From an uncultured Bacilli bacterium (GTDB lineage: Bacteria > Bacillota_I > Bacilli_A > RF39 > UBA660), in assembly GCA_944350415.1 (NCBI GenBank), contig CALVOY010000014.1, positions 262-64,261 of the forward strand: 64,000 nt of DNA, in the 5' to 3' direction. Below are positions 1,737 through 63,392 of this stretch, piece after piece. The notes beneath the pieces were generated by a model. That model saw only the letters and a program-made list of their open reading frames with translations, did no database searches and was not told the origin of the DNA. Every line of letters starts with the position of its first letter. Position 1 is the first letter of the stretch. The translations under genes were made by a program, and so were the position numbers.

Positions 1737-1761
1737 TTAGGAGGCGATCGCTCTATCCTAC
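1737..1761. repeat. putative attL core: 25-bp exact copy of internal segment of the right-hand tRNA-Arg
   Basis: ttaggaggcgatcgctctatcctac identical at 1737-1761 and 32286-32310. Confidence 0.6.
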
Positions 1762-13655: not shown

Positions 13656-14825
13656 TTATTCTGTTGATTCAGTTACAGCTTTTGTAATTTTAACGAAAGC
13701 TTCACCTAAAGCTGGTTTACCATCGAACATAGCAGAACCTAAATATTCAAGAGTATTATTTTGTAGTTTTCTACCAGTTTCAACAGTAATATCTTCAGCT
13801 AAGTTACCTGCATACATTTTGAAATCACCTAGATAAGCATCATGAAGTGCTACTTCATCATCTAACATTACTGGGTAACCTTCTACATAATAAGTATTAC
13901 CATCTTTAACAAATACATTGTTTTTAGATTTATCTTGTAAAGGTCTATAATCTGCAAATAATGTTTTCTTGCTCATTAACCATTTAGCATTTGAATCATA
14001 TGCTCCAGGTAATAATGCAACTGTAGCAGTAACATCTGCTTCTTTTAAACTAGCATCTGCAGCAACTGTAACACTATTTGTTTCATCCCAAGTATTAGCT
14101 TGTTCTACACCAGTAGGTTGATTTTTACCTGTACCATTGATAATTAATTTAGTAATTTTTCTAGCAATTCTTTTAGAAATCATATTTACTAACCAATTTT
14201 CAAATGCATCTACTGACATTTTTGAAACTGATTTTGAAATAGTGATATATTTATTAATTTCATAAGAAGTTAATGTAACTGGAATTAATACATCCCCATC
14301 TTCATTGATTGTTGCACCTTCAATATGAACATTTGCTTCTGTAGCATCTGCTTCAACTGCAAAAGTAACATTTCCTTCAACTCTTAAAAGTTCAATTTCA
14401 CTTAAAAGTGGTGCTTGTTGGAATACTCTTTCAATAATTAAATCTTGTGTTGTTGTAGGAATAACTGCACCAACTGAATCAGCAGCAGTTGTTAAAGCTC
14501 TTTCCTCTGTATCTGTTAATTTTTTTCCTTGTAAATTTTTTAAGAATGCTGATCTATATTCTTTTTCAGCTAAAATACTTCTTTCTTCTTTCATTTTTTG
14601 ATTTTCCTTTCTTTCTTCAAAATTATCTTCTTTAGTTCTCATTTCTAATACTTTATTTAAAGTTTCTTGTCTTTTTTCAGCCTTAGTAATGATTTCTTTT
14701 CTTTCTTCTTCTAATGCACTTACTTCATCTGTTAAAATTTCAACTTCTTCAGTTGTGATGTCTTCTCTTTCAAGTTCTTTTTCGATTTCCTCACATCTTG
14801 TTTGAATTTCTTTTAAAGTCTTCAT
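13656..14825 (-). CDS. major capsid protein, HK97 family (with N-terminal coiled-coil delta domain)
   Basis: 389 aa following prohead protease; coiled-coil N-terminus typical of HK97-like MCP. Confidence 0.75.
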   Translation of the reverse strand: MKTLKEIQTRCEEIEKELEREDITTEEVEILTDEVSALEEERKEIITKAEKRQETLNKVLEMRTKEDNFEERKENQKMKEERSILAEKEYRSAFLKNLQGKKLTDTEERALTTAADSVGAVIPTTTQDLIIERVFQQAPLLSEIELLRVEGNVTFAVEADATEANVHIEGATINEDGDVLIPVTLTSYEINKYITISKSVSKMSVDAFENWLVNMISKRIARKITKLIINGTGKNQPTGVEQANTWDETNSVTVAADASLKEADVTATVALLPGAYDSNAKWLMSKKTLFADYRPLQDKSKNNVFVKDGNTYYVEGYPVMLDDEVALHDAYLGDFKMYAGNLAEDITVETGRKLQNNTLEYLGSAMFDGKPALGEAFVKITKAVTESTE

Positions 14826-15525: not shown

Positions 15526-16764
15526 TTAGTCTGATACTTTTGAAGTTTTATTTCCTTCGCCTTCTCCTGTTGTTTGGATTCCTGTGTCTGCTCCATTACT
15601 ATCACCTCCATTATTATCTAGATTTATAACTTCGGTATATTCTTTACGAATATAACGCTTGTTACCTCCTTCTTCATCTGGTACTTCTGGCAAATTCCAA
15701 ATTCTCATAACTTGATTTACTGTCATAATACCTCTATCAAATAATTGTTGAGAAACACTTAATTTAGTATTATTACTAGCAAATTGCAATTTTGAACTTT
15801 CTAAATGTATTACGCAACCATCTCTTATTTCTTTTTCTGTGAAAAACATACAAGTTAAAACTTGACTTAATTGAATAGAAATAGGTTCAATACACCCTTC
15901 ATAAAATGAATTCCACTCATCCTCGTTAGCTTTATTTTGTAATATTTCTTCACTAACATGGAAATAATCAAAAACATTTTTTCTAATTTGTTCTGATTGT
16001 TGAGGATCAACAATAAAAGGTTTAGATTCTATTGGTTGAACTTGCGAATATTTGGCATCGAAAATTAAAACACCACCATTGTTATCAGAAGAAAGATTTT
16101 CATCAGTTAAACGCTTTCTTTCTTTTGTTAAATCTTCCGGCATTAAAACATTAGCAAGTTTAGCAAGAAAACGAATGCAAGCACTGTTTTTTATTCCTTC
16201 AATTATTCCTTGGTTTTGAGTATTGATTAAATCAAGTGTAGGATCTAAGGCTGAATTGCTGCTTCCCCAACGCTCTTTTTCATAATAATGGCTTCGTAAA
16301 TGCCCACATCTCTCATACTCAATAGCATATTGCTCTGAATCTACATAATATTTCAAATATTCAACACCGTTATATGTAATAACACTAGCACCTTTGGCTC
16401 TAACTGGATATAAACCTGTTATTTGCTCTGAATATATATCTTCATACAAAGGAATAATAAAAGCATTATTTTCACATTTTAGAATCGTTATTAGTTTAGC
16501 TAAGAACTGTTGTGTCGTTTGGATTCTATTAGGTTTTATTTGCAACATTTTCTCGATTTTAATTCTTTTGCCTTTTGGTGCTATAACTACTGGATTTAGT
16601 TTAGAACATTGTATAGCTATTTGTTCTATACTACTTCTAATTAACTCCATTTCATATAAACCACCATTAAAAGTTGTAAAAGCAGGTGCATAGCCATTTA
16701 TAAGTTGGAATTGTTGCTGCAATTTTTTCATCTGTAATTTTTCTTTTCTTTTAAACACATTCAT
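15526..16764 (-). CDS. portal protein
   Basis: 412 aa between terminase and protease. Confidence 0.8.
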   Translation of the reverse strand: MNVFKRKEKLQMKKLQQQFQLINGYAPAFTTFNGGLYEMELIRSSIEQIAIQCSKLNPVVIAPKGKRIKIEKMLQIKPNRIQTTQQFLAKLITILKCENNAFIIPLYEDIYSEQITGLYPVRAKGASVITYNGVEYLKYYVDSEQYAIEYERCGHLRSHYYEKERWGSSNSALDPTLDLINTQNQGIIEGIKNSACIRFLAKLANVLMPEDLTKERKRLTDENLSSDNNGGVLIFDAKYSQVQPIESKPFIVDPQQSEQIRKNVFDYFHVSEEILQNKANEDEWNSFYEGCIEPISIQLSQVLTCMFFTEKEIRDGCVIHLESSKLQFASNNTKLSVSQQLFDRGIMTVNQVMRIWNLPEVPDEEGGNKRYIRKEYTEVINLDNNGGDSNGADTGIQTTGEGEGNKTSKVSD

Positions 16765-16779: not shown

Positions 16780-18420
16780 CTATTTGCCACCTGTAAGATT
16801 TATATAATCTTCGTAGTGGTTTTGAAAAACAACATAGGCATCTATTAAAGATACTGTACCATCGATTCTTTGTTTTGAATTAGTACCTTTAACCGGTCTA
16901 ATGTTTTCATTTTTATCAACTTCAATTTGAGTATTAGTTAAACACCATTTTAGAATTGGATTATTATTATAATTAATAATTTTAGATTCTAGATCTGAAG
17001 CTAACAATTTCATAGGAGCTGACATTGTTCTTGCTCCTTGTATTACTTCTTCTAATTGAAATCCGTTGTTTTTCATTTCTTCTGTCCAATATTGAGCATT
17101 CCATTTATCATAACCGGTCCATAAAACATAGATTTCATACTTATCTCTCAATTCTTTAAACCAATTCGTAACATCTGTGTAATCAATTTTGTTGCCAATA
17201 GAATAATCAATATAACCTTTTTCTTTCCAAATTGAATATGGAACCTTGTCTTCAGTTTCTTTCTTTTCCGCTTTTTCACTCGGTATCCAATATTTTTGAA
17301 GAAGATAATACTTTTTATTTTTTCTAACTAAAACACTAGCACAAGTTAAATCACCTACAGATGACAAATCAACACCGCCTATTGCATAAGATTTTCTTAA
17401 ATCTTCAATATCAAATGTTTCAGTATTATTAATAGACTCGAAGCTTAACCATGAACCAACACCAGTTTCACGAATATTAAAATCTTTAGTTAATAATGTA
17501 GGTAAAAACTTAGAATCATCTTTACCTCGTTGCACATTTTCATTTAAGAATTCCAAAGATTTAATTGTGCCTAAACCTGGATTAGCTTTTTCCCAACATT
17601 CTGGAATGGTCCATTCACTTCTACTGTCTAATTCATAGATGAATGATAAGAATCTTTCATCATTTATAATACCGTTTAAAACATCATCAGCATATTCATA
17701 CATAGCATCGTAGATACATTCTCTAACAAAACCAGCAGTTGTTATCATAAATAATAGAGGTTGAGTTCTTGCACTCATCGATTGTTTAGAAACATCATAG
17801 ATATTTCTATCTTTTATTGAATGCAATTCATCAATAATACCACAGTGCATATTTAAACCATCTAGTGTATTTGAATCACTAGCTAATGGTTCAAATGTTG
17901 AAAATGTTAAAGGAACATATAAATCAGACTTTCTTTTCTTAATATGTTTTGATAATAATGGACTTTGCACTACCATATTCTTAGCTTCATTAAAGACAAT
18001 TTTAGCTTGTTCTTTTTTTGAAGCTACACAACATATTTGTGCTCCGCCTTCACGATCACCAAATAACATATATAAAGCAATGGCTGATAGTAAAGTGGAC
18101 TTACCGTTTTTACGTGCCACAACTATCAATAATTCTCTATATTTCCTATCACCATTATCATTTACAAAACCAAATATCGATTGTAATATGGCTTTTTGCC
18201 ATAAATCCAAAACTACAGGTTTCCCAGCCCACTTTCCTTTTGAATGTTTACAAAATCTTTCAACGAATTCAATTGGTCTATTCGCTTTATCTAAATCAAA
18301 GTGATATTTACCTGGATTTTCTAAATCAAAAACAAGTTTTTCAAATTGTTTTTTGACTTTTTTACTTACTTTTATTTTAGAATTTTGTATTAAATTGTAA
18401 TATTCTAATATATAATTCAT
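16780..18420 (-). CDS. terminase large subunit
   Basis: Walker A-like VVARKNGKST, 546 aa, synteny. Confidence 0.85.
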   Translation of the reverse strand: MNYILEYYNLIQNSKIKVSKKVKKQFEKLVFDLENPGKYHFDLDKANRPIEFVERFCKHSKGKWAGKPVVLDLWQKAILQSIFGFVNDNGDRKYRELLIVVARKNGKSTLLSAIALYMLFGDREGGAQICCVASKKEQAKIVFNEAKNMVVQSPLLSKHIKKRKSDLYVPLTFSTFEPLASDSNTLDGLNMHCGIIDELHSIKDRNIYDVSKQSMSARTQPLLFMITTAGFVRECIYDAMYEYADDVLNGIINDERFLSFIYELDSRSEWTIPECWEKANPGLGTIKSLEFLNENVQRGKDDSKFLPTLLTKDFNIRETGVGSWLSFESINNTETFDIEDLRKSYAIGGVDLSSVGDLTCASVLVRKNKKYYLLQKYWIPSEKAEKKETEDKVPYSIWKEKGYIDYSIGNKIDYTDVTNWFKELRDKYEIYVLWTGYDKWNAQYWTEEMKNNGFQLEEVIQGARTMSAPMKLLASDLESKIINYNNNPILKWCLTNTQIEVDKNENIRPVKGTNSKQRIDGTVSLIDAYVVFQNHYEDYINLTGGK

Positions 18421-19501: not shown

Positions 19502-20086
19502 TTAATACCCTAACAATTCACCTATTAAATCATTAGGCAATAATAAAGGCCTTATTGACTCTATTAACCTATTTTTATTTAGTGCAATTGTCGATGTTGA
19601 AGTTGTTTCTTTTTTATGATTCTTCTTATCAAGATATTCAGCTATTTGTTCATGTGTTTTACCTTCAAAATATTTTAAATGAATAATATCAAAATATGGA
19701 TCATTTTTTAAACTGTTAATAACTGACTCTATATGTCTAATAATTACCTTTGTTTTAAAGATATGTTTTTTTAGACTATCAATTGAATCTTCAATAATAT
19801 CATCTTTATCTTTTCTAATTGTATCGTGAGATAGTCCTGTTATAGATTTTGATTTTTCCTGAGTACCATATTCTCTTAATTCTTTAATTTCTTTCTCTCT
19901 TTCATTTATAGATGCTTTTAATTTTGGATATTCATATAAAATTCGCTCCACATTTTTAAAAGTAGAATAATTATTTTTTATAAAACCGCGTGCCTCTAAT
20001 TCATCTAATACAATATTTGATATTTCTTTTTTTGAAACATCCATTTCTTTTGCAATTTTATTTAAAATAATTTCTTCATTTATCAT
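19502..20086 (-). CDS. putative late-gene transcriptional activator (sigma-70 region-4/ArpU-like HTH)
   Basis: C-terminal HLKYFEGKTHEQIAEYLD resembles sigma region 4; located before packaging genes. Confidence 0.45.
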   Translation of the reverse strand: MINEEIILNKIAKEMDVSKKEISNIVLDELEARGFIKNNYSTFKNVERILYEYPKLKASINEREKEIKELREYGTQEKSKSITGLSHDTIRKDKDDIIEDSIDSLKKHIFKTKVIIRHIESVINSLKNDPYFDIIHLKYFEGKTHEQIAEYLDKKNHKKETTSTSTIALNKNRLIESIRPLLLPNDLIGELLGY

Positions 20087-20721: not shown

Positions 20722-20856
20722 CTCCTTTTTCTCTCTAATATTCTGTGCAAGATAACTGTGAATTATATTGCACACTTCCAATCTCACTTTTAGCTATATA
20801 AAATAAGGCTAAAACTCATATTTTTTTATCTAAATAGTTTTTGTGATTTTCGATAC
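20722..20856. repeat. ~135-bp direct repeat, copy 1 (carries TGTGCAA-N17-TTGCACA palindrome and TATAAT)
   Basis: ~85% identical to 22114-22247; begins at the RBS of the zinc-ribbon gene. Confidence 0.75.
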
Positions 20857-21219: not shown

Positions 21220-22095
21220 TCAAAATTTAATCATCTCCATTTTTTTCTTTTTTTCTTGCAAAGTAGTTCTTGTATAAATACTTGTCGTTTCCATTTTAGA
21301 ATGTCCTAAAATATCCATTAATTCTGTCATTGTAGAACCTGGTAATTGTAAATATGCTATTGCAAATAAATGCCTCCAGCCATGTGGATGAATGTGATCT
21401 AAATTTACTCTTGCTACTCCTCCGATTTTTTTCAAATGTCTCCAAATGGTTGATGGATTAATCATTCTGTTTGAATCTTGTTTTAAAATTGGATCTGGAC
21501 TTCTAAAAATAAATCCTTCTGTTATATTGTTATCTTTACAATATTTTTTTAATGATCTATGTAAATCTCCTATCAAGATAATTTGCCTTTCTTTACCTTT
21601 GCTGTAAATATCAATATATGGACCTTTTTGAATATTTTCAAATGTAAAATATTTTAATTCACTAATTCTAATTGCTGTTTGTGCAAATGTTTTAATAATC
21701 ATATACATTTCATACTCTTCGAGTTCTTTAGCTTTACGAAGCATTCTTTTATGTTCTTGATTAGACATTTGATTTTCTAACGATGATTTTTTTTGACTTC
21801 TAAAATGTTTTATTATTAAATCTTTATATCCTAGATATTTTAAAAATTTATTAAATATAACGACATATTTATTGATTGATGATACTTTAGCTTGTCCTGT
21901 CTTTAATTGTTGCTCTAAATATAACTTATATTTAATAGTAGAATCTTTTGAAAATGTAATATTATCCTCATTAATATAGTCATAGAATTTATTCAAGCAA
22001 TTTCTGTAATCAACTACTGTTTTAGTGGTCTTTTCATCAAGCCTCTCATTTTCACAAAATTCTTCTATTTTTTGTTTTAGTTCATCTTTAGTCAT
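21220..22095 (-). CDS. tyrosine site-specific recombinase (XerC/D-like, second integrase inside prophage)
   Basis: HPHGWRHLFA...LGHSKMETTSIYTRT catalytic R..HxxR..Y signature. Confidence 0.85.
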   Translation of the reverse strand: MTKDELKQKIEEFCENERLDEKTTKTVVDYRNCLNKFYDYINEDNITFSKDSTIKYKLYLEQQLKTGQAKVSSINKYVVIFNKFLKYLGYKDLIIKHFRSQKKSSLENQMSNQEHKRMLRKAKELEEYEMYMIIKTFAQTAIRISELKYFTFENIQKGPYIDIYSKGKERQIILIGDLHRSLKKYCKDNNITEGFIFRSPDPILKQDSNRMINPSTIWRHLKKIGGVARVNLDHIHPHGWRHLFAIAYLQLPGSTMTELMDILGHSKMETTSIYTRTTLQEKKKKMEMIKF

Positions 22096-22113: not shown

Positions 22114-22247
22114 CCTCTTTTCTTCTTAATATTAGGTGCAAGATAACTGCATATTATATTGCACACTTTAAATCTTAATTTTGGCTTTATAAAATAAGGT
22201 TAAAAAACAATATTTTTTGTCAAAATAGTTTTTATCATTTTTGATAC
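22114..22247. repeat. ~135-bp direct repeat, copy 2, immediately upstream of the recombinase
   Basis: Aligned by eye to 20722-20856. Confidence 0.75.
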
Positions 22248-25650: not shown

Positions 25651-25797
25651 TGACTCACCTCATTATAAAGAAAAAAACAGCCAAACTCATCCTCGCAAAC
25701 TCGCTGTTTTTATTTTTCTTTTTATTTTCTCAATTTTAAAGGAGTGTTTTATGAACAAAAATCATGAAATAAATATGAGGATTTTTAATTATAATAA

Positions 25798-26064
25798 TTA
25801 ATCTTGTTCTTTTAATTCTCTATAAGCTTTAAGAATCTCATCTTCAAAAATTTTTCTCGTTTTTGGATTAATAGGATGTACAATATCTCTATAATCCCCA
25901 GTAGGAGTTTTCTTACTAGGCATAGCAATAAATAATCCATTATCACCCTCAATTATTTTAATATCATGTACTGCAAAGCAATCATTTAATAATACAGATG
26001 CAATTGCCTTACACTTTGAATCTGTTGTATCTAGTTTTTTTATATTTACACTTGTTATTTTCAT
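25798..26064 (-). CDS. spoVG: SpoVG-family protein (phage-encoded homologue of the septation/sporulation regulator)
   Basis: MKITSVNIKKL..KAIASVLLNDCFAVHDIKIIEGDNGLFIAMPSKKTPTGDYRDIVHPIN closely matches the conserved SpoVG core. Confidence 0.75.
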   Translation of the reverse strand: MKITSVNIKKLDTTDSKCKAIASVLLNDCFAVHDIKIIEGDNGLFIAMPSKKTPTGDYRDIVHPINPKTRKIFEDEILKAYRELKEQD

Positions 26065-26065
26065 A

Positions 26066-26419
26066 TTAAATAAGCTCCTCTACTTCTTCATTGCTAAATA
26101 TAAATTTTATTTCATTAGGATTTTGTTCTATTTTAACTGTGCATCCAATATTTTTAAATTGACCTTCATACAATTTACTCTGAAGTTTATATCCTTCTAA
26201 TTCCCATATTTTATCCTCTAACTTTTGCATACAAATTTGTTCTCCAATTTTCATGTCAAAATTAGTAGGATCAACACAGCTAGAACTTTCTACGATTACA
26301 AATCCATTAGGAAGTGTAGCCATTAACACTGTCGTTTTATCTCCATACTTTTCTACTTTTATAAAAGTATTAGCTAATATTAAATCTATATCTTCTTTCG
26401 TAATTTTATTTTTCATCAT
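26066..26419 (-). CDS. hypothetical early phage protein
   Basis: ORF track. Confidence 0.4.
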   Translation of the reverse strand: MMKNKITKEDIDLILANTFIKVEKYGDKTTVLMATLPNGFVIVESSSCVDPTNFDMKIGEQICMQKLEDKIWELEGYKLQSKLYEGQFKNIGCTVKIEQNPNEIKFIFSNEEVEELI

Positions 26420-27552: not shown

Positions 27553-27797
27553 AATTTTCCTCCATTTCTTACAATAAAATAATTCTTATCTCTAGTAATT
27601 AAAAATTTCAAATATTCAACTTTGCCACATTTTTTGCAGCAGAAAGCATAATTAAACGACTGAGTATCAATATTCGGCTTTATTGCATATTCCAAGTATT
27701 TTTTAAAGTGATTTATTTCAAATGACTTATAATTGATAAAATAACCACATTTACAATTCCAAATGAACATTCCAAAATTTAAATTAATATTACTCAT
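27549..27797 (-). CDS. Cys-rich zinc-finger protein
   Basis: CKCGYF...CCKKCGKVEY. Confidence 0.4.
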   Translation of the reverse strand: MSNINLNFGMFIWNCKCGYFINYKSFEINHFKKYLEYAIKPNIDTQSFNYAFCCKKCGKVEYLKFLITRDKNYFIVRNGGKL

Positions 27798-28668
27798 GAA
27801 TACTACCTACAGCCTGACTAATAGAATCTAATAAATCATCCATCTCTTTTTTATCTTCATCTGTCATAGGCTCATTTTCTAATTCTTTGTTGAACCAATC
27901 CGGAAGTTCTGTTTCTGGCTCTTGCTTACTTTTACTTCTAAAATCATTTCGACTCCAATTTCGAATTGTGGCTTTCCAATTTTTCATATGATGTTTTCCA
28001 ACGAGCCAGCCATTTGATTCATAGTAATCAAAAAATTGTTCTGCAGAAAATGTTGGTATTTTTTTATGTTCATTTTTAGGTTTATTTTTGTTATGTTCAA
28101 ATATTTGATTTGTATATTCCTTGATATAATCAGCAATTTCTGGAATACTAGGCTTAGTAAATTTATCACTTTCTGCTGTTAGGTGTCCTCTTACACTTTC
28201 TCCAGGAGAATTAATCTTTTCTTTTTTTATATTTTTTTCTTTTAATTTATTATTTAATATTTTATTATTTAATATTTTATTATTGTACCAATTTTCCATA
28301 TCTTCATTTTCCATATCTTCATTTTTGGTACATGGAGTTAACTGTTCTGTTATTACATTTTTTTGAACCTGTGAAATTGACATTTCATAAATTATATACT
28401 CCCAATCATATATTTTTCCATTTTCATTTTTTATTGGTAATCTAATTAAATACCCAAATTTTTCTAGTTCTTGTAGTATAGAGTTAATTGTATTTTTTGT
28501 TTCTTTGTTAATAGCTGCTAAACCTCGAGAACTATAATCCCAATCCTCTCTAAGGCTCAGCATCTCAGATAATAATCCTTTTGCCTTTAATGACATATTC
28601 TTTTCTTTAAAATGATAATTTGATATTACTGAATAATTATCACTTCGCTCTATTCTAAATACTGCCAT
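27790..28668 (-). CDS. phage replication initiator (winged-helix N-terminus, DnaD-like C-terminal motif)
   Basis: C-terminal FFDYYESNGWLVGKHHMKNWKATIRNW matches the conserved phage Rep/DnaD-like motif; contains two perfect 15-bp in-frame tandem duplications. Confidence 0.55.
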   Translation of the reverse strand: MAVFRIERSDNYSVISNYHFKEKNMSLKAKGLLSEMLSLREDWDYSSRGLAAINKETKNTINSILQELEKFGYLIRLPIKNENGKIYDWEYIIYEMSISQVQKNVITEQLTPCTKNEDMENEDMENWYNNKILNNKILNNKLKEKNIKKEKINSPGESVRGHLTAESDKFTKPSIPEIADYIKEYTNQIFEHNKNKPKNEHKKIPTFSAEQFFDYYESNGWLVGKHHMKNWKATIRNWSRNDFRSKSKQEPETELPDWFNKELENEPMTDEDKKEMDDLLDSISQAVGSIHE

Positions 28669-29256: not shown

Positions 29257-29523
29257 TTAATTAAATAAATTACTTATATTTAAAAATTGATCTGCAGAAA
29301 TTTCTGGAAATTGTTTTTTTAATTGAATTATTATTAATATAAACTCTTCTAACTTTAATGGTCTTTTATTTTGAAAAGATAAATATAACTTTTGCTGAGT
29401 CAACTTTTTTGCAAATATATCTTCGGAATTATCTTCTTTTAATTTTCTTACAAAGGATGCAATATTTATATTATTATCAGACATAAATTTTTGTATTTCT
29501 TGAGCATAGTTCATTTTTAACAC
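29257..29523 (-). CDS. first gene of the lytic (Cro-side) operon, function unknown
   Basis: Divergent from the CI-like repressor across the operator region. Confidence 0.35.
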   Translation of the reverse strand: MLKMNYAQEIQKFMSDNNINIASFVRKLKEDNSEDIFAKKLTQQKLYLSFQNKRPLKLEEFILIIIQLKKQFPEISADQFLNISNLFN

Positions 29524-29681: not shown

Positions 29682-30107
29682 TTGTTAAGGGATAATATCA
29701 AAACTGCAAGAATAAAAAAAGGATGGTCCCAACAAGATCTAGCTAATGAATATAATTTATTAGTTAAAAAAATTAATAAACAAAATAACTTAAATTTACA
29801 TACAATTGGTAGAACATCCATTACCCATTGGGAAACTGGCAGATATACACCAGAAGTTGAATCAATACCTGTTTTGTGTGAAATATTACAAATCAGTGCT
29901 GATAGTCTATTGGGTATTGATGAAATTATGAAAATTCAACAACATAGCCAATATGAAAAGAACATTTTACTAGATGATGGTACAAAAATTTCTATTCATA
30001 CAAATAAAAATTGGGAAGAATTAACTAAAGAAGAAAAAAAAGAAATAATGGATTCAATTATTGAAGAATCAGTAAAAATTAAAAAAGAAGAAAGTAAAAA
30101 AAACTAG
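29682..30107 (+). CDS. CI-like repressor, XRE-family HTH (TTG start)
   Basis: ARIKKGWSQQDLANEYNL...IGRTSITHWETGRYTPEVESIPVLCEILQISADSLLG. Confidence 0.8.
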   Translation: MLRDNIKTARIKKGWSQQDLANEYNLLVKKINKQNNLNLHTIGRTSITHWETGRYTPEVESIPVLCEILQISADSLLGIDEIMKIQQHSQYEKNILLDDGTKISIHTNKNWEELTKEEKKEIMDSIIEESVKIKKEESKKN

Positions 30108-30135: not shown

Positions 30136-30930
30136 GTGAAAAATAAATATTTAATATTATTATGCTGTATTTTTGGAGGATGGTTTGGTCTTCATTGCTT
30201 TATAGAAGGTAAAATTAAAAAAGGTATTTTATATTTATTTACAGCAGGTTTATTTTGTATTGGTTGGTTAGTTGATATAATTACTATTGCTTGTCAAAAT
30301 CAAGCAAAAACATTAGAAAATAAATCACAGAGTAAACATATTACATATAGATTTACGATTGATGAATGCGATAATAAAAAGAAAACATTGTATTCGCAAA
30401 CACGATCAAGAAAATATTATGATGATTATATTGTCTTTGATTTAGAAACTACTGGATTTAATCCAAAAGATGATGAAATTATTGAAATAGGTGCTTTAAA
30501 ATTTAAAAATGATAAATTAATTGATACATTTAATGTTTTAGTTAAACCAAAAGCTAGATTAACAAAAAATATTATTGAATTAACTGGAATTACAGAAAAT
30601 ATGCTTAAAAATTGTGATTCTATAGAGATAGCACTGCCCAAATTTATTGAATTTATTGAAAACTATCCTTTAGTAGCTCATAATAGTCCATTTGATTTAG
30701 GTTTTATAGAAGAAAATATAAAAAATTTAAATTTACCTATAATAAAAAATAAAAATATAGATACACTATATCTGTCTAGAATAAATATAAAGGATGTTCT
30801 AAATCATAAACTGGAAACACTAAAAATGCATTTTAATCTTAATTATTCTTCACATAGAGCAATTGAAGATTGTTATGTTACTAATTATATTTATCAATAT
30901 TGTAAAGACAAAAATACTGTTAAAAATTAA
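30136..30930 (+). CDS. TM2-domain membrane anchor fused to DEDDh (DnaQ/pol III epsilon-like) 3'-5' exonuclease; GTG start
   Basis: N-terminus LILLCCIFGGWFGLHCFIEGKIKKGILYLFTAGLFCIGWLVD = TM2 domain; exo motifs FDLETTG (I), AHNSPFDLGFI (II), HRAIEDCYVT (III). Confidence 0.75.
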   Translation: MKNKYLILLCCIFGGWFGLHCFIEGKIKKGILYLFTAGLFCIGWLVDIITIACQNQAKTLENKSQSKHITYRFTIDECDNKKKTLYSQTRSRKYYDDYIVFDLETTGFNPKDDEIIEIGALKFKNDKLIDTFNVLVKPKARLTKNIIELTGITENMLKNCDSIEIALPKFIEFIENYPLVAHNSPFDLGFIEENIKNLNLPIIKNKNIDTLYLSRINIKDVLNHKLETLKMHFNLNYSSHRAIEDCYVTNYIYQYCKDKNTVKN

Positions 30931-31075: not shown

Positions 31076-32107
31076 ATGGCAAAATATAAATCTAGAAAAT
31101 TACCTAATAGATACGGAACTATTAGCAAACTATCAGGTAATAGAAGAAAGCCTTATATTATTAAAGGATTTGAAGGCTATGATGATGACGGGAAAATAAT
31201 CAGGCCTATTATTGGATATGCTATAGACTATACAGAAGCTTTGGGTATATTATCTAATTATAATAAAGAACCTTATGATTTAGATTATGCAAATTTATCA
31301 ACTAAAGATTTATTTAATTTATGGTATGCTGATCTTTATAATAAAGTTAAAAGCAAAAAGCTAGGAGAAAAAAGGTATAAGGGATATAAAAGTACATTTG
31401 ATAAGTATTTTAAAACTATTCATAATCAAAAATATATATTATTAAAGACTAATGATATGCAAAAATGCTTTGATGAATGTATACATGGTTTTTCAACTAA
31501 AACTAATATGAAAATAATATTTAATGGACTTTTTGAAAAATCACAAGACCTTGAAATGCCAATCAAAAAAAATTTTGTTGAAAACTGCTATATTGGAGAA
31601 AAAGAAGATTCAGAAAAACATATTCCATTTTCTACACAAGAAATAAAAAAATTATGGAATAATATTGATAATACAGAAAATATAGATTTAATATTAATTA
31701 ATATTTATACAGGATGTAGACCAAATGAATTATTAGAACCTAATGAAATTCATTTTGAAGAAAGATATTTTATTGGTGGAAGTAAAACTGAAGCAGGTAG
31801 AAATAGAATAATTCCAATTCATGAAAAAATTGCTAATTTATTTAAAAAAAGATTTATTGATAGCGAGATTAATATCAACTATCGAAAATACTACAAATCC
31901 TTTCTTGCTGCAATGAATAAATTAGAAATGAATCACACGCCGTATGATTGCCGCCATACATTTGCAACAGAAGCCGATAATAGTAAACTAAATGACTTAT
32001 GTATCAAACTAATCATGGGGCATTCAGTACAAGATATTACAAAAGGAGTATATACTCATAAAACTCCACAACAATTAGTAGAAGAAGTGAATAAAATTGA
32101 CTTTTAA
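31076..32107 (+). CDS. int: phage tyrosine integrase
   Basis: TGCRPNEL...HTPYDCRHTFATEA...LIMGHSVQDITKGVYTH catalytic signature; adjacent to att repeats and tRNA. Confidence 0.9.
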   Translation: MAKYKSRKLPNRYGTISKLSGNRRKPYIIKGFEGYDDDGKIIRPIIGYAIDYTEALGILSNYNKEPYDLDYANLSTKDLFNLWYADLYNKVKSKKLGEKRYKGYKSTFDKYFKTIHNQKYILLKTNDMQKCFDECIHGFSTKTNMKIIFNGLFEKSQDLEMPIKKNFVENCYIGEKEDSEKHIPFSTQEIKKLWNNIDNTENIDLILINIYTGCRPNELLEPNEIHFEERYFIGGSKTEAGRNRIIPIHEKIANLFKKRFIDSEININYRKYYKSFLAAMNKLEMNHTPYDCRHTFATEADNSKLNDLCIKLIMGHSVQDITKGVYTHKTPQQLVEEVNKIDF

Positions 32108-32247: not shown

Positions 32248-32324
<77 letters not shown>

Positions 32325-62630: not shown

Positions 62631-63392
62631 CTAATTTTCTAAAGGGATGGAATATAAAGAAGAATTTCTTACTAACCCACTTCCATAATAGTTAGGTACA
62701 CTTCCTTGGATCATCTTAATAGCTAAGGGAATATCACATTCTAAGATCATTTTATCTGTTAAAAAAGGTAAAATAATTTGAGCAGTCATTTTTAATTTTA
62801 CACCTATCTTTACCAAGGCATTATTGATTCCGTAGGGAGTAATTTCAGTAGTAATATTACTGGTTACATCACCCACATAGTGCATTCTTATTGGAATAGA
62901 AGGACCAATATTAGATAAAATAGAGTTTCCAGTCACTACACCAATGGGAATTTTAGCAATGATCCCTTTCTTCAAATCTTCTATCTTCTCTTCTGATAAA
63001 TCCATATCATATATCCCTGTCGTATCTAGATTTCCTTCTTCTAATGATTTTAAATTATTTTGAACAGCACTAGTAGCAATATTTAAAATTTGATTTACAA
63101 TCACGGGATTAAAGTCGATCGTTTGAATCTCTCCATTATCGTTTATAATGGTATCAAAAAGATCTTCTACATTAATTTCATTCTCTAGTACCTGAGAAAT
63201 AGCTTTATTGATTACAGTAGTAGAAATTTTATTAATTTCTAACTCTGCATTTTCTAATAAGATAGGTGTAAATCGACTATTCATGAAATTCAAAAAGAAT
63301 CCTACTACAACCAAACACAATAGGAAAGTTATCATTAAAATATTAATTTTTTTAAATTTCTTGCGCCTTTTTAAATGGATTCTTCGTTTCAT
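62631..63392 (-). CDS. YunB-like sporulation protein (N-terminal signal-anchor)
   Basis: Size, basic N-terminus + TM and organisation resemble YunB. Confidence 0.4.
   Translation of the reverse strand: MKRRIHLKRRKKFKKINILMITFLLCLVVVGFFLNFMNSRFTPILLENAELEINKISTTVINKAISQVLENEINVEDLFDTIINDNGEIQTIDFNPVIVNQILNIATSAVQNNLKSLEEGNLDTTGIYDMDLSEEKIEDLKKGIIAKIPIGVVTGNSILSNIGPSIPIRMHYVGDVTSNITTEITPYGINNALVKIGVKLKMTAQIILPFLTDKMILECDIPLAIKMIQGSVPNYYGSGLVRNSSLYSIPLEN

Follow-up and report, generated by a model that had tools for sequence, protein, structure and literature searches.

The question raised by this locus is whether a temperate phage carries a genuine copy of the regulator SpoVG and, if so, what use would be made of it. 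SpoVG is a pleiotropic DNA- and RNA-binding regulator that is present in non-sporulating bacteria too, and in B. subtilis it is said, in work from 1999 attributed to Matsuno and Sonenshein, to restrain asymmetric septation. The gene considered here is located in a stretch of 64,000 nucleotides of an uncultured Bacilli bacterium (the window). Spore formation bears on how gut Firmicutes persist and spread and is also a refuge from phage, and if the phage SpoVG re-times or blocks development, it would provide a small, testable handle on the interference of temperate gut phages with dormancy.

Phage-borne spoVG genes are already catalogued as a class. Schwartz et al. (mBio 2023, PMC10294663) listed spoVG (K06412) as one of 31 homologues of sporulation genes that are enriched in gut phages infecting spore-formers and suggested, without experiments, a post-transcriptional regulatory role for it. 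The present case concerns the same gene in a gut phage of a predicted spore-former, with the same hypothesis of dormancy manipulation, but locus-level anatomy is absent from that catalogue. The contribution of this work is the anatomy of the locus and the selection acting on it, and no new principle; what is new at locus level is the conserved cassette formed by an Acb4-like gene and spoVG, its position at the end of the early operon together with a conserved downstream element, the chromosomal source locus, the purifying selection and the mosaicism.

The prophage, its attachment site and its host

The analysis of the window revealed a complete integrated temperate phage with spoVG inside it and an empty site in related strains, which bears out the claim of the preliminary description that the gene is phage-encoded. 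The main features of the prophage and one gene of the host flank are the following:

1737..1761, no strand, attL core, TTAGGAGGCGATCGCTCTATCCTAC, exact 25-nt repeat with its junction in contigs L145 and L148
1762..32285, minus strand, whole prophage of about 30.5 kb with lysis/tail genes, virion genes, early block and lysogeny module
13656-14825, capsid gene
15526-16764, portal gene
16780-18420, TerL gene
19502-20086, late activator gene, sigma-r4-like
21220-22095, minus strand, second tyrosine recombinase gene (291 aa), mid-prophage
27790..28668, minus strand, replication initiator gene, DnaD-like/HTH_36 (phrog_428, phrog_186, PF13730), upstream of spoVG in the same operon
29257..29523, minus strand, first gene of the leftward early operon (Cro position) in the ORF map, divergent from the repressor gene
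29682..30107, plus strand, CI-like HTH repressor gene (PF01381, PF12844) of the lysogeny module
31076..32107, plus strand, tyrosine integrase gene (PF00589), adjoining attR and the tRNA-Arg gene
32286..32310, no strand, attR core, exact 25-nt repeat within tRNA-Arg(CCT) 32248-32324
62631-63392, host flank, YunB gene (Spore_YunB, 87 bits)

Genes for HNH, TerS, tape measure and tail proteins are also present in the prophage. The product of 29257..29523 gave no family match, and its role is assigned from position alone. No further homologues of sporulation regulators were found within the prophage.

Two metagenome contigs (L145 and L148) with a 99.9% identical flank join position 32286 straight to about 1764, which defines the prophage as a discrete and polymorphic insertion of about 30.5 kb, and three others (L142, L143 and L146) carry a different element at the same attachment site. 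In the prophage-free strains, tRNA-Arg(CCT) is present at this site as its 5' half only, which reaches as far as the anticodon loop and is continued by sequence that is not tRNA, and no tRNA was detected there by ARAGORN. The 3' half is supplied by the phage or by the element of L142, L143 and L146, so that the site has a full-length tRNA-Arg(CCT) only while one of these elements is inserted. A further full tRNA-Arg(CCT), distinct from this one, was observed at 1605-1681, about 55-65 nt from the attachment site.

Two other loci of the prophage deserve description. The second tyrosine recombinase gene is flanked by 130-nt direct repeats (20727-20856 and 22118-22247, 81% identical); an 85%-identical homologue occupies the equivalent place in another phage, L093, and shorter genes of the Phage_integrase family follow spoVG in L004 and L096. 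The repeat-flanked recombinase gene may belong to a nested module that is mobile or invertible, or may encode a regulator derived from a recombinase. Between the repressor and integrase genes, the plus-strand gene 30136-30930 encodes an N-terminal TM2 membrane domain fused to an RNase T/DEDDh exonuclease, a candidate for a superinfection-exclusion or defence gene of the prophage.

Concerning the host, the flank encodes YunB, a CotZ-like protein (Spore-coat_CotZ) and two FtsW/SpoVE paralogues. The YunB and CotZ-like genes make a spore-forming host plausible, in support of what had been proposed from the sequence, as a prediction. By its SpoVG identity and this predicted spore-forming host, the gene corresponds to a phage-carried sporulation gene in the sense of Schwartz et al. 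(2023).

The spoVG gene, its product and its place in the operon

The features of the spoVG locus are the following:

25667..25721, minus strand, terminator-like hairpin with U-run found by folding, outer stem ACAGC/GCUGU
25778..25788, minus strand, conserved non-coding motif TTAAAAATCCT, 10 nt past the spoVG stop codon, from the three-phage comparison
25798..26064, minus strand, phage spoVG (88 aa), full-length SpoVG domain
26005-26043, region holding the codons of the N-terminal hairpin substitutions (residues 8-20), from the alignment
26066..26419, minus strand, partner gene (117 aa), PF13876 (Phage_gp49_66; Acb4 anti-CBASS sponge family), phrog_322
26075..26080, minus strand, Shine-Dalgarno sequence GAGGAG read within the 3' end of the upstream gene

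In the ORF list of the window, spoVG is intact from ATG to TAA, with the GAGGAG 10 nt upstream of the ATG. The core peptide on which the preliminary description had based the assignment is present in the translation, and the protein is a full-length, bona fide SpoVG. It matched Pfam PF04026 over the complete profile (1-82 of 82) with an E value of 7.4e-34 and 116.2 bits (cutoff, 29.6 bits), and it scored 118.5 bits with the NCBIfam equivalog NF009749 'septation regulator SpoVG', above the cutoff of 108 bits. Residues 1-86 aligned with the PDB chains 2i9z, 2i9x and 2ia9 (S. epidermidis and B. subtilis) at E values of about 1e-25, the identity to these crystallised proteins being about 48-50%. 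An AF2 model (pLDDT 78.9) displayed the strands of the beta-core followed by a C-terminal helix (residues 67-87), and in a Foldseek search of the PDB its ten best matches were all SpoVG crystal structures (TM 0.74-0.84, and 0.80-0.84 to 2i9z/2ia9). All sequence and structure criteria tested place the 88-aa product in the SpoVG family.

Two other origins of the gene were rejected. A pseudogene or recent host fragment, which the preliminary description had named as a refutation (truncated core, no ribosome-binding site), was ruled out by the full length, the ribosome-binding site, the synteny in three phage lineages and dN/dS values of 0.21-0.32. A chromosomal contaminant misassembled beside phage genes was ruled out because three metagenome contigs, independent of one another, contain the identical gene and cassette, and because none of the chromosomal neighbours of spoVG is present.

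A conserved basic doublet (K50-R51 in S. aureus, R53-R54 in B. burgdorferi) is essential for DNA binding by SpoVG, and a six-residue stretch of the C-terminal helix (SDMRQE in S. aureus) sets its sequence specificity (Jutras et al., PMC3688583). Among the functional DETERMINANTS of the phage SpoVG, K51-K52 aligns with K50-R51 of S. aureus. The HPIN motif is kept as H63-P64-I65-N66, with H63, P64 and I65 invariant in the alignments; the conserved proline of SpoVG is noted as essential in PMC3362512. The specificity stretch reads PKTRKI in the phage protein and PETRKV in the nearest chromosomal copy among the matches listed, and the specificity helix is almost identical to those of chromosomal SpoVGs of related gut 'Bacilli'. 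The sequence gives no sign of a loss of nucleic-acid binding.

The phage protein thus shares length, fold, family, basic doublet, HPIN motif and C-terminal helix with the chromosomal SpoVGs of Firmicutes (B. subtilis, S. aureus/epidermidis, Listeria; 2IA9, 2I9Z, 2I9X). Unlike them, it has N-terminal hairpin substitutions, lacks the acidic C-terminal tail and is a mosaic of phage-type and chromosomal-type sequence, and its gene lies in a phage early operon beside an Acb4-family partner instead of in the yabG-veg-spoVG-yabP or yabJ-spoVG context. The SpoVGs of the window and L004 have nine N-terminal beta-hairpin substitutions in common (I8, K9, L11, D12, T13, T14, K17, C18 and A20); of the positions concerned, at least six (8, 9, 13, 17, 18 and 20) are conserved at 90% or more in 30 close homologues. 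The substitutions of this lineage could change interactions with partners or between subunits, which would go beyond simple mimicry.

The placement of spoVG in an early region was supported: the early (replication/host-takeover) block ends with this gene. A single nucleotide separates the spoVG start from the stop codon of the cistron before it (26066-26068), a spacing suggestive of translational coupling, and the hairpin behind the gene, being terminator-like, marks the end of the block. From this gene order alone, with spoVG coupled, last in the early operon and followed by the hairpin, the protein is most likely made upon infection or induction and silent in the quiescent lysogen.

The hairpin keeps its position and outer stem in L004 and L093; it was not called by a simple terminator scan, its loop or inner stem being too long. 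The motif TTAAAAATCCT is invariant in the three phages, with coding DNA that is only about 80% identical, and TTAAAAATCCY occurs as a single copy in the window, with no repeated regulatory motif found in the prophage. The 147-nt gap 3' of spoVG (25651-25797, minus strand) is conserved (2134-2290 in L004, 6259-6400 in L093) and has the same layout, with an invariant TTTAAAAATCC about 10 nt after the stop codon followed by a long imperfect hairpin between an A-run and a U-run. The element may act in termination or in processing, or may be a small RNA. An Rfam search for structured RNA near spoVG gave only tRNAs across the window, and the gap element is not in Rfam.

The partner gene, other phage copies and the chromosomal source

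The protein encoded immediately upstream of spoVG scored 84.8 bits with PF13876 (cutoff, 27), which is the Acb4 family of anti-CBASS cyclic-nucleotide sponges (bioRxiv 10.1101/2024.12.30.630793), and matched the Acb4 structure 9e4w weakly (E 0.02). When the cGAMP contacts of SPO1 Acb4 were mapped through this weak alignment, K36, F48, F62 and I66 were found kept and E49, Y57 and T70 replaced; since only about half of the contact residues are kept, the ligand of the Acb4-like protein may differ. The protein also has a C-terminal extension of about 30 aa.

The Acb4-like/SpoVG pair is found with the same 1-nt gap and the same hairpin in two other mosaic phages. In the L004-L006 group the Acb4-like protein is 89% and SpoVG 83-84% identical to those of the window, and in L093 (IMG/VR UViG_3300008268_000478) the values are 76% and 72%, with the remaining early genes of L004 and L093 only 30-48% identical or absent. 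Adjacency to PF13876 as a general rule was discarded, because a PF13876 gene lies within 5 kb of spoVG in only 2 of 42 SpoVG-carrying IMG/VR contigs, and the pairing is therefore lineage-specific. In the contig L095, spoVG lies amid genes for a clamp loader, ThyX, a sigma-like protein, RuvC and a PD-(D/E)XK nuclease, with a PF13876 gene 4 kb away.

These 42 contigs, out of 2.9 million, were retrieved by a pattern scan of IMG/VR with alignment, and together with 21 matches among 50,697 deposited phage records they answer the suggestion that spoVG be sought in other phages. The immediate neighbours in the IMG/VR contigs are genes for dUTPase, ThyA/ThyX, DnaD-like initiators, primase and RusA, and none of the 42 contains chromosomal spoVG neighbours; placement of phage spoVG in early modules is general across them. 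Identity stays below 57% in all 21 deposited records, which are mostly short gut fragments without annotation, entered as 'Bacteriophage sp.', and which include 2 Staphylococcus and 3 Listeria 'phage' entries. Some of the IMG/VR contigs (L094/L095, which equal L103/L104, L110, L113, L115, L118, L122 and L132) are 120-213 kb long and may be jumbo phages or phage-plasmids.

In PHROGs only the divergent phrog_27338 was matched, and weakly (E 6e-8, residues 1-61); it probably corresponds to the SpoVG-like proteins of virulent podoviruses of C. perfringens (Volozhantsev et al. 2012, PMC3362512). Those proteins are likewise phage-encoded, with a Pfam match to SpoVG and a spore-forming clostridial host, but they have 103 aa, are highly diverged and lack the conserved proline, whereas the protein described here is canonical and belongs to a temperate phage.

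The closest chromosomal SpoVGs among the matches listed (75-78% aa identity) belong to uncultured gut 'Bacilli' MAGs and are all encoded in yabG-veg-spoVG-yabP-yabQ-divIC loci; in the L007 group, cotJB and cotJC are close by. The chromosomal candidates P0005, P0007 and P0010 stem from samples or organisms other than that of the window, and a genome scan gave no 100%-identical chromosomal locus among the matches listed. Around the phage gene, yabG, veg, yabP, yabQ and divIC are absent and the neighbours are phage genes, so that the gene is a phage xenologue and not the housekeeping orthologue. Among the phage copies the dN/dS values given above were obtained at dS of 0.5-0.67, and these values and the conservation of the cassette indicate that purifying selection maintains spoVG in the phages.

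A single clean capture giving a monophyletic phage clade was not supported at the protein level, as monophyly was recovered in only 2.5% of bootstraps. In an NJ tree of the proteins, the copies of the window and L004 group together (98% bootstrap) next to one chromosomal group, and the L093 copy pairs with a different one; the conflict between this tree and the dS pattern is explained by mosaicism. The nucleotide identity between the window and L004 genes is 96% over codons 1-28 and drops to 68% in codons 61-83. In its 3' third the window gene is closest to chromosomal L007, whereas the 3' thirds of L004 and L093 resemble the L018 and L013 types. Maximum-chi-square permutation tests gave p <= 0.0005. 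These patterns are suggestive of recombination between phage-borne and chromosomal (or other phage) spoVG alleles, with the specificity helix included, and fall short of proof because the recombinant segments are short.

As a separate observation, the chromosomal spoVG of the P0010 type (L150-L152), from one related gut lineage, lies beside divIC without yabG, veg, yabP or yabQ, the genes that flank it in sister lineages; this hints at a lineage that has lost sporulation genes and kept spoVG.

Roles considered for the phage SpoVG

The reading that we favour, with confidence a little better than even, is that host-like SpoVG activity is delivered off-schedule during lytic development and acts on the host SpoVG's own targets. 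A spoVG of host lineage has become a fixed, selected gene of a temperate tailed phage of about 30.5 kb at tRNA-Arg(CCT); early-operon transcription after infection or induction would lead to synthesis of the phage SpoVG, which would bind by mimicry the DNA and RNA targets of the host protein; and SpoVG present off-schedule would re-tune, in favour of the phage, what the host does after exponential growth under SpoVG control (sporulation/asymmetric septation, envelope). The host-like, recombining specificity helix argues for shared host targets.

Sporulation or septation is a plausible output of the phage SpoVG. In B. cereus, spoVG mutants do not sporulate and show low spo0A transcription (PMC8186074), and in Listeria the protein is a global RNA-binding regulator (PMC4959528). 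The direction of an effect on sporulation cannot be predicted, because the sign of SpoVG action differs between species. Timing of expression, targets, and the sporulation effect with its direction are what we infer for this phage. A parallel is that of phage sporulation sigma factors (Schwartz et al. 2022, cited in PMC10294663), likewise host developmental regulators copied into phage and expressed in the course of infection, which belong to another protein class and were shown experimentally to cut spore yield, whereas the present SpoVG is known from sequence.

A bolder form of this reading, which we consider quite unlikely, treats the Acb4-like/SpoVG pair as a co-selected host-takeover cassette, in which SpoVG would be an anti-dormancy effector that blocks or delays asymmetric septation and sporulation, by which the host would escape infection into dormancy, its helix being repeatedly swapped with chromosomal alleles to match host targets or subunits, and the partner would neutralise cyclic-nucleotide immunity.

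A phage-directed regulator, acting mainly on phage DNA or RNA (for example in an early-to-late switch) and independent of a host SpoVG limited by growth phase, is possible, although we regard it as rather unlikely. In S. aureus, deletion of the host spoVG lowers both the activity of the phi13 late promoter P23 and the phage yield (PMC13123087), a dependence that makes such a role an equally direct alternative, but the phi13 effect may be indirect. The position of spoVG at the very end of the early block, just before the conserved hairpin and motif, its presence within replication and nucleotide-metabolism modules in other viral contigs, and the existence of a distinct late activator (19502-20086), whose activity a SpoVG-type factor could tune, are all consistent with it. 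Action on host targets is better suited to a specificity helix that is host-like and seemingly swapped with chromosomal alleles, and the prophage yielded no candidate binding motif in repeated copies.

The preliminary description had proposed lysogenic conversion or host takeover. In lysogenic conversion, expression from the resident prophage would change how the lysogen sporulates or septates for good, for example in favour of carriage in spores. This is improbable in view of the gene arrangement. Morons have their own transcription unit, expressed in the lysogen, and usually a peripheral position in the prophage, whereas spoVG is internal to the leftward early lytic operon that diverges from the repressor gene, 1 nt from the preceding cistron and with its ribosome-binding site inside it, away from the prophage ends; its GC content (0.27) is not distinct from that of the surroundings (0.25-0.28). 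In favour, phage-carried sporulation regulators have a precedent (PMC10294663), which joins the argument made in that description, the gene is followed by the terminator-like hairpin, and the upstream gene contains a promoter-like, AT-rich match (26158-26130). A scan for a promoter of spoVG gave nothing above chance, with 115 promoter-like matches found and 109 expected. An internal promoter may nevertheless exist, such matches occurring at chance frequency in this DNA of 27% GC.

The two-gene unit might also serve counter-defence, with SpoVG as a decoy or inhibitor, built on its fold, of a host immune or abortive pathway beside the Acb4-family protein; we give this a slim chance. Anti-defence genes tend to cluster, the 1-nt-coupled pair is conserved in three mosaic phages, and the N-terminal hairpin departs from almost invariant SpoVG residues. 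The partner family is a validated anti-CBASS sponge family (bioRxiv 10.1101/2024.12.30.630793). Against this stand the scarcity of PF13876 near spoVG in the IMG/VR contigs and the retention of all known nucleic-acid-binding determinants of SpoVG, and the literature searched yielded no precedent for an anti-defence protein with the SpoVG fold.

That spoVG is a functionless passenger, a recently acquired and decaying host fragment, is effectively refuted: its host origin is apparent from the identity to chromosomal copies, but the gene is complete with start, ribosome-binding site and stop, syntenic in three phage lineages and under purifying selection, and no flanking chromosomal genes were captured with it.

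If the phage SpoVG does re-time or block host development, the phage copies, which differ in the C-terminal helix, would also offer a natural variant series for dissecting SpoVG binding.
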